Shown here: positions 7,298-46,891 of the stretch, one piece after another
Layout: each line of letters begins with the position of its first letter
How positions within the stretch are numbered: position 1 is the first letter of the stretch
DNA from: a virus
Strand: one strand, 5' to 3'
DNA length: 64,000 nucleotides
Virus record (IMG/VR): IMGVR_UViG_3300031788_000002
Span: 32,001-96,000 of that record
Notes under the pieces: generated by a model
What the model was told of the DNA's origin: nothing
Databases searched by the model: none
What the model saw: the letters and a program-made list of their open reading frames with translations, nothing else
Program-made: the position numbers and the translations under genes

Positions 7298-8281
7298 CTA
7301 CGAGGACTTCTTGGGCTGTGGGGTAACGTAGCCGCCGTGGATTGAGTTCGTGGGGATGTCAGGAAGCGGCTTCATGCGGCGGTGAAGCAGTGCTTGCAAA
7401 CCCTCTCGCGCCGCTTCTTTGAGCTCGGGGTAATCCTCGGCGCGTTCCGCTGCCGTGCCCTCGACTTTGATGATGACACTCTCCCCTGACAACGTGATTG
7501 TAGCCGAGCGCGTGTGCACATCGGCATACTCACGCTTTTCACAGGCGGACAGGCGCTCCATAATGCTCGTGGGTAGATCGTGTCGGTGTGCCATGACATG
7601 CGTCTCAAGTCGCTGAAGGCGTGCTTCCAGATCGCTAGACGGTACCTCGTGTGTTGCTGCCGAAGCGCTGGCGGGCGCCGGTTGCGCCTTTTCCAGCGCC
7701 GTACGGGGTGCAGACAGCTCTTCTGCAACTTCTTGAAAGATGGCCGGGGGTACATCGTTAGCGGAACGGTCCGCGTCGTCGTAGGCGTAGGTCCTATTCA
7801 CATTCTTTTTGGTGATGAGCTCCGCTTGGAGCAGGCACTTGTCGAGCTCCATGTGCAGAAAGCGTCGATGATGGCGTACGCGCGTGATCCAGGGTTCTCC
7901 CAGTGCACTGACGACTTGGGTGAGGCGCCGCCGGGCGCCTTGCACCGTAGTGGACCCATCTTTTCCGATGCACGCGAAGACGTCGATGATTGCCGCGGGC
8001 CATGCGCGGGGCCAGCTATACTTCGAAGGATAGCGGGCCGTGGGCCTACTACGCTTTTGAACTTCGTAGTAGTCCCGCAACCATGCCTTGAGCACGCTGA
8101 TGTTCTCAACAATGAGATGCAGGTCGTCGAGCGCTTTATCTGCTTCTTGCAGCGTGGCCCACTTCTCGCTGCGTACCATGTCTTGCCACGTCCTCGCTTT
8201 GTTGAGTTCCGTTGCAGACCACTCTTCTGCGTTTACGCCACTGGCGTTCGTTTTATTGTCCTTCGTGTGCTTGTCGCTCAT
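7298..8281 (-). CDS. hypothetical protein
   Basis: AAAGGA RBS; 327 aa. Confidence 0.7.
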   Translation of the reverse strand: MSDKHTKDNKTNASGVNAEEWSATELNKARTWQDMVRSEKWATLQEADKALDDLHLIVENISVLKAWLRDYYEVQKRSRPTARYPSKYSWPRAWPAAIIDVFACIGKDGSTTVQGARRRLTQVVSALGEPWITRVRHHRRFLHMELDKCLLQAELITKKNVNRTYAYDDADRSANDVPPAIFQEVAEELSAPRTALEKAQPAPASASAATHEVPSSDLEARLQRLETHVMAHRHDLPTSIMERLSACEKREYADVHTRSATITLSGESVIIKVEGTAAERAEDYPELKEAAREGLQALLHRRMKPLPDIPTNSIHGGYVTPQPKKSS

Positions 8282-8343
8282 GGTATTCCTTTAACAAGTG
8301 ATCCCCGTATTTGTTGTGCCATGCACTGTGGTAATTTTGTGGG

Positions 8344-9153
8344 ATGACCTACGTAGACTCGTTGACGTTCGCGGCACCGACGTTGGGTTGTTCTGCACTT
8401 CTTCCTACGCTGCCGAATGAGATCGGCCCGGCGCGGGAGGACCGCTTGTTCGAGCTGTACATGGCGGGGCAGTGCCCCCTGTGGTTGCGCCAATGGAAGG
8501 AGATTGTTGTAGAGGCCGAAGGGCTCAAGGGGTCCTTCTTCGTTCTTCCAGATTTCCTCTGCCTCGGCACGGACACCGACTACCTCTATACGCCGATGGG
8601 CGCGCTCAATGCAGAGCGCATTCTGGAACAGCGGTTCAACGCTGTGCTACCGACCGAACGCATGGTCGACTTGATCTACGCCGCGTCGAAACGGCAAGCG
8701 GCGCAGCCCTGGGGACCGCCTTACGACGATTCCATGATGAACACCAGCCGCTGGCCGGCGCAGAGCGCCAAGGTCATTGGGATGCAGCGTGCCCGCGGGG
8801 TGACGACAGGACAATTGGTAGAAGGCCATTGCAAGAACGTCATCGTGAGCGATAAAGCCATGGCGAAGCACGGCGTTCACCTGGGCTTCTACGGTTGGTT
8901 CTTAAACAACGGGGAGCCGATCCAGCAAGACAGCCTGGAGCATGGGGCTCTCTATTGCGATTACTCGCACGGCGTTCGTGGCGTGCTCAGTACAGTCGTC
9001 GTGGAAGACCAGACTATGAAGCTAGCGGACGCACTGAAGGACGAGCGGGCGCACGTGCTATTTTCGAGTACGCGCTTCGACCCGGGGTCGTACACGGCGG
9101 CGCGCGCCGCTTACTTCCAGATGCGTGGCGTCGAGGCGCCCTTGATTTACTAA
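8344..9153 (+). CDS. conserved hypothetical enzyme-like protein
   Basis: Motifs PDFLxLGTDxD, LPTxxMVDxIY, GHxK, YGW and HxxxYxDYSHGVR recall an uncharacterised bacterial family; leaderless start. Confidence 0.7.
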   Translation: MTYVDSLTFAAPTLGCSALLPTLPNEIGPAREDRLFELYMAGQCPLWLRQWKEIVVEAEGLKGSFFVLPDFLCLGTDTDYLYTPMGALNAERILEQRFNAVLPTERMVDLIYAASKRQAAQPWGPPYDDSMMNTSRWPAQSAKVIGMQRARGVTTGQLVEGHCKNVIVSDKAMAKHGVHLGFYGWFLNNGEPIQQDSLEHGALYCDYSHGVRGVLSTVVVEDQTMKLADALKDERAHVLFSSTRFDPGSYTAARAAYFQMRGVEAPLIY

Positions 9154-9213
9154 GAGCGGAAAGTTCAGCGTGCGCACGGTATAAGCATCCTGGGAAGGAT
9201 GCCGCGCTAGAAC

Positions 9214-31984: not shown

Positions 31985-32628
31985 ACGCCGACAATGTTCT
32001 TATAGAACACCGCCGCGCAGGCATCCTCGTTGAAACGCGCAGTGTTCACAATGTTTGGACGTCGGTCGGTAAAGCGTACTTATCCCAATTGGTCGCTTTT
32101 CAAGTCATCGATGACGCTATCGGTGACTTTCCGCAAGAAGACCATCGCATCAAATACTTTGGGGTGGGCATCGGCGGTAACGAAGCCTCTGGGATAGCGT
32201 ACGAAACGGTGTTGGCCACAGCGTACCCACCAGGCGAAGATCCTGTCGGTACGGCAGGCAACGCGTACAACAAGATCAATCCTACGGGACCCTTGATCAC
32301 CACGCTTGAACGCCCTGTGCGCTTCACGGGAAGTACGCAGCCGTATCCTAGTGCGCTCTCTTCCGATGTTTGGCTCTCAAACCCTCTTGTGGCGTACTAC
32401 CGCGATATCAACTCGGTGACGTTTCGCACGACATTGGATGGATCGGCGGGCATCTTAGCGTACAGCCCCTTTACGATCCTTCCCATTTCTGAGGCAGGGC
32501 TCTTCAACTCCGCGGCGTCCCCTAACTTACCGTACAACGCGGCGCTTGCTTACGTTAATTTCAACGCTCTCTTTTTCCAAAGTGACAGCGTGATCACGTT
32601 TTCTTGGACCGTGAGGTTTGCATCGTGA
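31981..32628 (+). CDS. tail-fibre/baseplate-associated protein (paralog A)
   Basis: HNVW..G..YLSQL, YFGVGIGG, LERPVR, ISEAGLF. Confidence 0.65.
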   Translation: MNADNVLIEHRRAGILVETRSVHNVWTSVGKAYLSQLVAFQVIDDAIGDFPQEDHRIKYFGVGIGGNEASGIAYETVLATAYPPGEDPVGTAGNAYNKINPTGPLITTLERPVRFTGSTQPYPSALSSDVWLSNPLVAYYRDINSVTFRTTLDGSAGILAYSPFTILPISEAGLFNSAASPNLPYNAALAYVNFNALFFQSDSVITFSWTVRFAS

Positions 32629-44627: not shown

Positions 44628-45161
44628 ATGAGCTACTTGATCGCTGATGCGCAGGATGTCGTTCCTCTCAGCCTCGTGGTGGAGCGCGAGGGCGTGGGGG
44701 GTATCGCGGGGTTATCCCCCACGGTAGCTCTGCGCCTCGGGGAAGATCCAACACAATACTTGGACTGGTCCCTCATGGCCTTCAAAGCCAGCGGATGGGT
44801 AACGAAGTACAAGACCATGACGGGGGTTGAGCGCGGGCACTACTACACGCTTCTCAGCTTGCCGACGTTGGGGGCTGTAGCCGGGGCGTCTTACGTGGCA
44901 CAGTTCAACGTGAACAATGGCGCCGATGTTCAAGGGGAGGCCGAGGACGTTCTTTTAGTGACCTCGGTCGCTACGGATGTTGCGTTGCTTCGAAAGGCGC
45001 TGACCAACCGAATGGAAGAATCTCCGGGCAACCCAGGGCAGCTCACCCTGTTTGACGATGACGGCTTCACCGTTTTGGCGCGGTGGCAGCTTACGGACAC
45101 GACCGGGGGGGCGGTGGTCAGCAGTTTGGGGACGCCGGCGCGTCGGAGCGCGCGCGTGTAA
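44628..45161 (+). CDS. virion structural protein
   Basis: LRKALTNR...LTLFDDDGFT.L..W.L C-terminal module. Confidence 0.6.
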   Translation: MSYLIADAQDVVPLSLVVEREGVGGIAGLSPTVALRLGEDPTQYLDWSLMAFKASGWVTKYKTMTGVERGHYYTLLSLPTLGAVAGASYVAQFNVNNGADVQGEAEDVLLVTSVATDVALLRKALTNRMEESPGNPGQLTLFDDDGFTVLARWQLTDTTGGAVVSSLGTPARRSARV

Positions 45162-45373
45162 TGCGCAGCGGCTTTCTTGCGTTGACGGGCGTTCCTTTCG
45201 GAACGCTTACGATCACCCGGGGCCTCGGGGGTTTCGGCACAGGGTTGGTGGAGCCGGTTGTAGAGGAGGGCGCGGAGCTTCCACGTCCGGCCCCGCGAGC
45301 GGTGCCCGAGAACAAGAAGGCGCCCACGGCGCTTGTTTACCAACCGATGGCTAAGAAAAAGAGGGGGCGCTAA
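45161..45373 (+). CDS. small hypothetical protein
   Basis: TAATG coupling; ITRGLG motif. Confidence 0.45.
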   Translation: MRSGFLALTGVPFGTLTITRGLGGFGTGLVEPVVEEGAELPRPAPRAVPENKKAPTALVYQPMAKKKRGR

Positions 45374-45380
45374 GCGCCCC
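45355..45380 (-). terminator. intrinsic terminator ending the replication block
   Basis: GGGGCGC-TTA-GCGCCCC followed by CTCTTTTT on the minus strand; convergence point of the two blocks. Confidence 0.65.
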
Positions 45381-45384
45381 TGTA

Positions 45385-45573
45385 TCAGTCGAGCTCCGCC
45401 CCTTGCAAACGGCGCAGGGGGGAGTCCGGCGCCCCGAAAACTTCGAGGCCCGCCAGCGCTACGATGTCCCGCAAAGACGCTTCGGGCGCCGTCGGGTCAA
45501 CGTCGATAAGATCCTCAGGCCGAGGAAGAACACAGCCCGGCCAGAGGTTCGCGCTGGCCGCTAGGCTTTTCCC
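45385..45573 (-). CDS. -1 frameshift extension of the 45561..46496 gene
   Basis: Slippery G GGA AAA at 45573-45567; -1 frame open to TGA at 45387-45385; no evident RBS-preceded start of its own. Confidence 0.7.
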   Translation of the reverse strand, partial: GKSLAASANLWPGCVLPRPEDLIDVDPTAPEASLRDIVALAGLEVFGAPDSPLRRLQGAELD

Positions 45574-46496
45574 ATGAGCGACGCCAAGAGATCTGCCGAG
45601 AGCTGCTCGTCGTAGCCCTGGCGGAGGTGCGCCTTGTAGTATTCCAGCAGTTGCGTGTGATCCATGTTCAGCGCGCGCTCGGTGAGCATCATCAGCATCA
45701 TCAACTGGACGTTCGTGAGCTTGACGCCGCCAGTTACACGCTTGTTGAGCTCGGTCACGCTGGCGGACAGCTGTTCCTGCACCAAGGTCAGCCGCTGGAT
45801 GGTCTCGGCAATTTGGAGAAGCGTGACGTTCGTCTCCCGAGCGTTGGTTCCTTGCGGCTGTTGCATGGCGGGCTGTTGAGGAAAGGGGATCGGTTGCTGC
45901 ATGGGTTGCTGCGGCACGAGTTGCGGGTTCGTCGACATACCAGGTCCCGGCATCGTCGGCATCCCGAAAGACGTCGGGGAGTTCATCGGCATCGTCGGCA
46001 TCCCGAAGGACGGCGGCGCGTTCATCGTGTTTGGCATCTGGGTAGGGATTTGTCCCGGCATCGACTGCGGTTGCGAAGGCATTTGACCGGGCGCACCCAT
46101 GTGCGGGGGGAGCATGTGCGCGGGGATCACGACAGGGACTTGCGGCCCGGGCATCTGCGGGTTGAAGCCCCCCGGTTGCTGTTGTTGCTGTGGAAAGCCG
46201 CCTTGCACCGGCTGTTGCTGGAAGGGCAGTTGCTGCGGGTTGTTCGGCATTTGGGGCGGCATCTGGGGGTTGTTGTTCATGGCAGTTCCTTTTCTCTTGT
46301 CATGCTCGATCAGCGCGTCCGCAACGGTTTGAGCGCGGGCGTCCACGCTGAGGTCATGAAATGCGATCTTTTGTTCTTCCGTGCTGCACAAACCCATCAA
46401 GTGCATGAGCCTGTACAAGCCGGCCAATTGATACTGTGTTTTGAGGGCAGCGACATCGCGGGGGGCGGTATCGATGCTTACAAGGGCGATTCCCAC
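45561..46496 (-). CDS. Pro/Gln/Met-rich low-complexity protein with C-terminal coiled coil
   Basis: AGGAG RBS; GTG overlapping the upstream TAG; 311 aa. Confidence 0.8.
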   Translation of the reverse strand: MGIALVSIDTAPRDVAALKTQYQLAGLYRLMHLMGLCSTEEQKIAFHDLSVDARAQTVADALIEHDKRKGTAMNNNPQMPPQMPNNPQQLPFQQQPVQGGFPQQQQQPGGFNPQMPGPQVPVVIPAHMLPPHMGAPGQMPSQPQSMPGQIPTQMPNTMNAPPSFGMPTMPMNSPTSFGMPTMPGPGMSTNPQLVPQQPMQQPIPFPQQPAMQQPQGTNARETNVTLLQIAETIQRLTLVQEQLSASVTELNKRVTGGVKLTNVQLMMLMMLTERALNMDHTQLLEYYKAHLRQGYDEQLSADLLASLMGKA

Positions 46497-46891
46497 TACT
46501 TTCTCCTGAGCTGCGTTAGGCGCTGTTGATGATCGGGGGAGAGCTCGGACCAACAAGCCGACACCTGCATATCAACACAGCGATAGCAGGGCTTTGCGTC
46601 GACCTTGGCAGGGTCTGGGTTGCGAATGTTCTTCGCCGGGCACTTCAGCTGTGCCTGTAAGTTGCTCCAAAACTCGGTGATGAACGTGATGAGGTTGACG
46701 CGCAATTCATCGAGGGCGTTGGGCTCTACGACAAACTCTTTACCCAAAAGCGCCTCGATGTACGCTGCGCGGTACCAGTTCGGTTGAACCGGTAGTTCCG
46801 CATGACGGCAGAGCTGGTAGAGCTCCGTGCGGTTCATGTGAGCGAAGAGTTCATAGAGCTCTTGCGTGGAGGAATCGAGCGATGGGTCCAT
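46496..46891 (-). CDS. hypothetical protein (helical N-terminus, Cys-rich C-terminus)
   Basis: MNRTELYQLCR; CP...CYRC...C. Confidence 0.7.
   Translation of the reverse strand: MDPSLDSSTQELYELFAHMNRTELYQLCRHAELPVQPNWYRAAYIEALLGKEFVVEPNALDELRVNLITFITEFWSNLQAQLKCPAKNIRNPDPAKVDAKPCYRCVDMQVSACWSELSPDHQQRLTQLRRK

Follow-up and report, generated by a model that had tools for sequence, protein, structure and literature searches.

Does the last gene of a phage replication operon encode a single protein, or two forms of one? The question is raised by a 64,000-nucleotide (nt) stretch of viral DNA (positions 32,001 to 96,000 of IMG/VR virus record IMGVR_UViG_3300031788_000002; hereafter the window), in which a minus-strand gene for a protein of 311 amino acids (aa) is followed by about 180 nt that automatic annotation leaves empty or fills with a meaningless fragment. 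Our analysis of the sequence indicates that a programmed -1 ribosomal frameshift (PRF) in all likelihood extends the 311-aa protein to 370 aa. The extension is missed by automatic annotation in every assembly examined, and gene callers give 311 aa in all assemblies of the locus. Such a frameshift had been put forward in an original prediction made from the letters of the window alone. On the minus strand, the 3' end of the gene reads ATG (45575-73) GGA (45572-70) AAA (45569-67) GCC TAG (45563-61), confirming the in-phase G GGA AAA heptamer at 45573-45567 on which that prediction was built. The -1 frame stays open, again as predicted, for 60 new codons up to a stop at 45385, 4 nt before the terminator of the operon, and the product sizes were given correctly: 311 aa for normal termination and, for the frameshift product, what would be 370 aa. 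The first codon of the extension, AGC (45567-45565), begins with the A that ends the heptamer. Among the 14,389 codons of the window's likely genes, the in-phase GGGAAAA is unique.

In the proposed mechanism, ribosomes would reach G GGA AAA with tRNA-Gly on GGA and tRNA-Lys on AAA, and a fraction of them would slip one base back to GGG AAA, bypassing the TAG that stands one codon on and that may act as a ribosome pause. The slipped ribosomes would append 60 residues, giving the 370-aa form beside the 311-aa form. The slippage would take place at the level of the ribosome.

At least 12 diverged lineages of phages carry, in the -1 frame downstream of a homologous gene rich in P and Q, a homologue of the extension (L020, the clade L022-L028, below called clade C, L030-L033, L088, L089, L152-L154, L156, and L157). 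In each lineage the domain stands in the -1 frame right behind a gene that encodes an N-terminal helical domain, a linker rich in P, Q, M, and A, and a helical C-terminal domain, and relatives show the same order of genes around it. L020 was located via its Cas4-like exonuclease (53% identity). There the homologous gene ends GCG GGA AAA TAG, and the -1 frame continues for 61 codons to a TGA, followed by a terminator; the extension is 63% identical to that of the window, and the main protein 33-35%. In clade C, where L022-L024 came from a metagenome scan with the extension alignment and L025-L028 were added by protein searches, the ending GGA AAA TAG is common to all members, and their -1 extension, 67 codons long, shares about 35% identity with that of the window. 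The nine further lineages that were found without reference to the heptamer came from the DNA of profile matches (L030-L033) and from a scan of IMG/VR with the pattern [LMV]WPGCxLP[KR], of which the heptamer is not a part (L152-L154, L156, and L157). L088 and L089 were found with a pattern that requires the heptamer, GGGAAAA..TGGCCNGGNTG. This pattern gave more than 117 stretches, nearly all of them chance matches; the only real new relatives among them were these two, and L140 proved to be the L020 contig. Because L088 and L089 are heptamer-biased, they were left out of the tally of heptamer conservation given below.

When the extension profile was searched exhaustively against 1.84 billion representative proteins, 13 matched, and 12 of these are proteins of 39-77 aa that we read as gene-caller fragments of the extension domain. 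The remaining one, P0022, a predicted protein of 120 aa, matches the window's extension almost perfectly over some 40 residues at its C-terminal end. Its N-terminus looks instead like a signal peptide plus an unrelated domain, and either a chimeric contig or recombination could account for it. No in-frame fusion of the extension with the main protein was present among the 1.84 billion proteins. The profile matches once in the whole 167,481-bp virus record to which the window belongs (CheckV completeness 89%). Neither blastn against the phage collection nor scans of IMG/VR with the 311-aa and 531-aa proteins gave a match. The sole match of a genome contig scan, L029 in a Burkholderiales metagenome-assembled genome, is the antisense of a GNAT gene and was dismissed as chance.

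The pattern of substitutions speaks for translation of the -1 frame. Between the extensions of the window and L020, the differences at codon positions 1, 2, and 3 number 19, 15, and 40 (chi-square p 7e-4), with 24 purely synonymous codons against 22 non-synonymous ones. The ungapped comparison of L022 with L023 gives 7, 4, and 26 differences, with 20 synonymous and 9 non-synonymous codons (p 1e-5). Of the six frames, the -1 frame alone lacks stops throughout the 10 lineages tallied. In a 14-member alignment of the extension, the W, P, G, C, P, D, and L positions are invariant, and AlphaFold run with this alignment models the 60 extension residues alone with a predicted local distance difference test (pLDDT) score of 83.7. 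By these measures, the region downstream of the gene is protein-coding in the -1 frame and under purifying selection.

The comparison of homologues that the original prediction had suggested bears out both the coding -1 frame and the heptamer. Among the 11 relatives whose discovery did not depend on the heptamer, 7 have an exact in-phase xxG GGA AAA (L020, clade C, L031, L032, L152, L154, and L156), and the heptamer is likewise identical and in phase in L088 and L089. In this genome GGA makes up 15% of the Gly codons and AAA 29% of the Lys codons, and third-position G stands at 32%; a conserved Gly-Lys pair would therefore yield the heptamer only 1.4% of the time (0.014 per lineage). The synonymous sites neighbouring the heptamer are close to saturated. 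The binomial probability of finding the heptamer in 4 of 6 relatives is 5.6e-7, and the same calculation done by hand for 7 of 11 gives a value of the order of 1e-11, figures that are a guide only, as the lineages are not fully independent. On this reckoning the heptamer is conserved at the nucleotide level beyond the needs of the protein sequence. In E. coli, G_GGA_AAG is highly shift-prone (PMC5009743). The stop lies 0-2 codons past the heptamer in all lineages that bear GGGAAAA except L088. In L088 (2112-2280) the first 0-frame stop comes only 55 codons past the in-phase heptamer, so that translation without a shift would yield a product with an out-of-frame tail rich in R, S, and L.

Several observations weigh against this reading of the site. 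The exact heptamer is missing from four of the 11 relatives: A GGA AAA is found in L033 and G AAG AAA in L153, L157 has lost the heptamer and has G GGG GGA four codons ahead of the stop, and L030 has no slippery site and carries GTG at the first conserved codon. Besides L030, a start at or near that codon is found in L031 (ATG), L032 (TTG), and L033 (a GTGA overlap), and independent initiation is possible in these four. The heptamer of the family ends in A AAA. In E. coli, a species that may differ from the host, A AAA slips less readily than A AAG. The downstream structure weighs on the same side. When the 42 nt starting 4 nt past the site were compared with all segments of equal length from each locus, folding in the window was no better than background (14th percentile); the z score for downstream folding in the window was -0.78, and RNAalifold of the family gave no consensus structure (-0.99 kcal/mol) and no meaningful covariation. 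The original prediction had spoken of a complete cassette. The 6-nt spacer GCCTAG and the perfect 7-bp stem CGGCCAG (45560-45554) / CTGGCCG (45544-45538), are present as it described them, and the stem has a folding energy of -12.1 kcal/mol; the heptamer and the coding frame hold good, while the hairpin as a working part is not corroborated, its stability being within background and the covariation looked for across homologues being absent.

The starts in L030-L033 suit a separate small protein, whose translation would begin near the stop of the main gene, either independently or by termination-coupled (re)initiation. In the same direction, gene callers begin small open reading frames (ORFs) at the codon before WPGC or slightly earlier (P0021-P0031), and L020 and clade C have an ATA, a rare table-11 start, overlapping the TAG. 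However, the window has no ATG, GTG, TTG, or ATA in frame ahead of the motif, and none of the first three in the 242 open codons of the -1 frame upstream of the heptamer. The same three starts are missing from the 51 open codons upstream of the heptamer in L020 and from the -1 frame ahead of the conserved motif in L152, L153, L156, and L157. Normal initiation is therefore unavailable in these relatives and in the window. The starts that do exist lack properly spaced Shine-Dalgarno (SD) motifs, and the domain stands invariably in the -1 frame. Coupled initiation, moreover, needs no in-phase GGGAAAA, yet 7 of the 11 lineages keep it against the codon bias. We consider a separate protein improbable. 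The long form could also arise from mRNAs short of one A, if the RNA polymerase slipped in the A-run. The protein outcome would be the same, and the conserved GGGAAAA does hold a short homopolymer. Productive transcriptional slippage in bacteria has, however, been described at runs of about 9 A or T (PMC5009743), and this explanation is very unlikely because the A-run here is only four bases long. The conservation, in addition, includes the GGG, as tandem re-pairing of tRNAs predicts.

It could further be argued that nothing is recoded, the 176-nt stretch being a 3' untranslated region or an RNA element and both heptamer and open frame the work of chance. By a hand estimate, a frame of 60 codons would stay open by chance in about 13% of cases at the local G+C; the hairpin of the window lies within background, and the window is one out of a very large scan. 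We give this explanation hardly any credence, as it is contradicted by the third-position bias across lineages and by the single open frame out of six; besides, AlphaFold2 (AF2) folds the extension domain confidently, and the stretch has no Rfam match and no conserved RNA structure. Errors that merge or break frames at homopolymers are common in assemblies, and a single 370-aa ORF might have been split by a 1-nt error in sequencing or assembly, or else a mutation might recently have inactivated it. The original prediction had raised the error itself. Against it, 19 independent loci from NCBI, ENA, Logan, and JGI assemblies, made from different samples and with different pipelines, are identical over 330 nt from the heptamer onward except for one single-nucleotide polymorphism (45381 A>G in 5 of the 19, which adds one G-C pair to the terminator stem), and the exact 311-aa protein is present on contigs of many samples; the phage occurs in samples of peat and wood. 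An assembly error is dismissed because the 19 assemblies agree. The same -1 offset recurs in more than 10 diverged lineages, and the protein search named above contains no fused homologue, so that a broken ORF has next to no chance of being the explanation. Within the gene, the 19 near-identical loci vary at 1 site in 915 nt, a variation so low that it is uninformative on selection.

If, then, the ribosome shifts frame at this site, slippage would be made more frequent by the nearby stop and, in part of the lineages, perhaps by a hairpin or by an SD-like motif upstream. In the window, the proximal hairpin competes with a distal one, GGCCGGG / CTCGGCC, which is the more stable and beats the proximal stem in contexts of 60 nt and longer (minimum-energy fold of 60- and 67-nt segments); L020 has the distal hairpin too, in a stronger form. 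Downstream folding falls within the best 1% in clade C, L088, and L154, at the 3rd percentile in L157, the 7th in L156, and the 12th in L020, and between the 20th and 63rd in L152, L031, L032, L153, and L089. The hairpin is strong in clade C, L088, and L154 and absent in L089, L032, and L153. Motifs of the type GGAG, GGGAGGG, or GGAGGA stand 7-16 nt upstream of the heptamer in L020 (9181-9193), L024 (2974-2988), L032 (3466-3482), and L088 (2095-2111), and may be dnaX-like SD stimulators in those relatives; the heptamer of the window has no GGAGG-like motif upstream. As no structure is shared and both hairpins and SD-like motifs are patchy, what the family has in common is the heptamer and the nearby stop, and the stimulators appear to be lineage-specific.

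What the predicted extension would add to the protein was examined with structure models. The extension consists of a WPGC..P...D motif followed by two helices, which AF2 places at residues 29-39 and 50-56. The closest VIA neighbours of residues of about 22-60 are MANF/CDNF SAP, Ku70 SAP, a LAP2 LEM-like domain, and SLX4 (Z 2.2-2.8), with Z scores of 2.8 to MANF SAP and 2.3 to Ku70 SAP and LAP2 LEM, all below significance. Pfam Rho_N is touched by 3 of the 14 family members, with a best E-value of 0.012, below the cut-off. These models are a weak pointer to a small SAP/HeH-like module that binds nucleic acid or a partner. The likeness to the SAP, LEM, and Rho_N HeH modules lies in the modelled helix-loop-helix; the invariant N-terminal WPGC..P...D motif is, to our knowledge, absent from SAP/HeH definitions.

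For the main protein, AF2 gives an N-terminal helical domain at residues 10-72 (pLDDT about 90), a disordered P/Q/M-rich linker (pLDDT below 55), and poorly modelled C-terminal helices. The protein has no explanatory match in Pfam, PHROG, PDB sequences, or the ESM Atlas, and a PDB profile search and PHROGs scan of the homologues gave only weak matches of the low-complexity type. Foldseek against PDB found no match for the model of the main protein or of the extension. VIA neighbours of the main protein (among them Sak, NinB, DnaD, and Rho-N; best Z 6.8) were rejected as below the noise of the tool for helical models. One of them, the N-terminal helical part of Rho (1a62, Z 5.3 over 48 residues), was paired with the N-terminal domain (window 46290-46470, residues about 13-68); this neighbour, also below noise, is of the same fold class as suggested for the -1 extension.

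The long form might serve, in a set and low proportion, to anchor the disordered P/Q-rich protein on DNA or a partner. The fixed ratio of the two forms, and the coiled coil that the original prediction ascribed to the protein, are conjectural. Going further, the frameshift would fix a low ratio of a DNA-anchoring, SAP/HeH-tailed isoform to the untailed P/Q/M-rich isoform, a proposal that we regard as unlikely. If it were true, the protein would act as a scaffold for a replication/recombination compartment of the phage, together with the block's two other P/Q-rich proteins, and recoding would control the valency or anchoring of a condensate-like assembly. We know of no earlier description of such control by PRF. 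Isoforms that differ by a probable nucleic-acid-binding module, as modelled here, could give a handle on the function of an unannotated gene.

The nearest known systems share some features with this family. Like the lambda G/GT tail assembly chaperone (TAC), the 311-aa gene would use a -1 slip on G GGA AAR near the 3' end of a short phage gene, with a minor, C-terminally extended fusion (here predicted) beside a major short product, and in both the arrangement persists among diverged phages whose proteins have little identity (PMC5009743). The surroundings are different. The original prediction had placed the gene in a replication block rather than among tail chaperones, and it is indeed the final gene of a leftward recombination/replication operon that includes a family-A DNA polymerase, a RecA/UvsX-like protein, a Holliday-junction resolvase, a Cas4-like exonuclease, a 194-aa protein, a RusA-like protein, and a 131-aa protein. 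It does not lie between the tail tube/major tail and tape-measure genes; the extension is of 60 aa with a SAP/HeH-like look, not that of a T-domain, and the stop stands 0-2 codons past the site. No significant match to TAC families in PHROGs or Pfam was found for the window protein or its homologues, which is weak evidence because TACs are very diverse.

The dnaX tau/gamma pair is similar in being replication-associated and in having two isoforms (here predicted) with a common N-terminal part, which an interaction domain at the C-terminus sets apart. In certain dnaX variants, the longer product tau comes from the frameshift and the 0-frame stop for gamma lies directly 3' of the -1 site (PMC5009743), an arrangement like that of the 311-aa gene. 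On the other hand, the 311-aa protein has no AAA+ clamp-loader homology (no Pfam match, and small helical domains with a disordered linker in AF2), the dnaX heptamer is A AAA AAG where here it is G GGA AAA, and the present family has no conserved 3' stem-loop or 5' SD stimulator.

That PRF in phages extends beyond tail chaperones is shown in PMC10885494, which names T7 gene 10A/10B and the major head protein of phage A2 together with reports in Cro, lysins, polymerases, and RusA/RuvC, and according to which 2397 of 2476 PRFs annotated by SEA-PHAGES are TACs. None of these non-tail families resembles an N-terminal domain, P/Q-rich linker, and helical domain with a SAP-like -1 tail. As far as sequence comparison goes, we are thus very probably dealing with a classical mechanism in a new and hitherto unnamed family of genes from large environmental phages. 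Nearly all annotated phage frameshifts sit in tail chaperones, and the present family lies outside them. With at least 12 lineages that vary in stop distance, hairpins, and SD-like motifs, it is a naturally replicated set on what makes G GGA AAA shift.

The features of the locus are collected in Table 1.

Table 1. Features at and around the predicted frameshift site (window coordinates).
Feature	Position	Strand	Remarks
Convergent conserved 70-aa gene	45161..45373	plus	Stop codon in terminator loop; last gene of structural block
Intrinsic terminator of leftward operon	45354..45380	minus	Stem 45380-45364, 7 G-C pairs, then T-run
Predicted -1 frame extension	45385..45566	minus	60 codons + TGA (45387-45385)
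SAP/HeH-like two-helix part of extension (modelled)	about 45504-45388	minus	
Alternative distal hairpin GGCCGGG / CTCGGCC	45518..45542	minus	Mutually exclusive with proximal hairpin
Conserved WPGC motif of extension	45543-45532	minus	
Proximal hairpin, possible stimulator	45538..45560	minus	7 bp, 9-nt loop, 6-nt spacer GCCTAG after heptamer
0-frame stop TAG	45561..45563	minus	One codon past heptamer
Slippery heptamer G GGA AAA (putative)	45567..45573	minus	X XXY YYZ phase; decodes Gly-309, Lys-310
Main 0-frame gene, 311 aa	45561..46496	minus	GTG start at 46496, TAG stop
Upstream 131-aa gene	46496..46891	minus	Translationally coupled to 311-aa gene

The 311-aa gene is convergent with, and on the opposite strand from, the rightward structural block, and no tRNA genes were found in the window. 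At its 5' end, the stop of the 131-aa gene overlaps the GTG start of the 311-aa gene (TAGTG). In the window and in clade C these two genes are separate but overlapping, unlike in L020, where their homologues share one unbroken frame of 457 codons (7830-9203). At the 3' end, the non-coding DNA between the two operons amounts to 11 nt once the extension is counted. The convergent 70-aa ORF is called by most gene callers and is conserved as a protein, with 34-43% identity in the clade C relatives. In clade C, the stops of this ORF and of the -1 extension, on opposite strands, overlap (CTAG) within the terminator loop.

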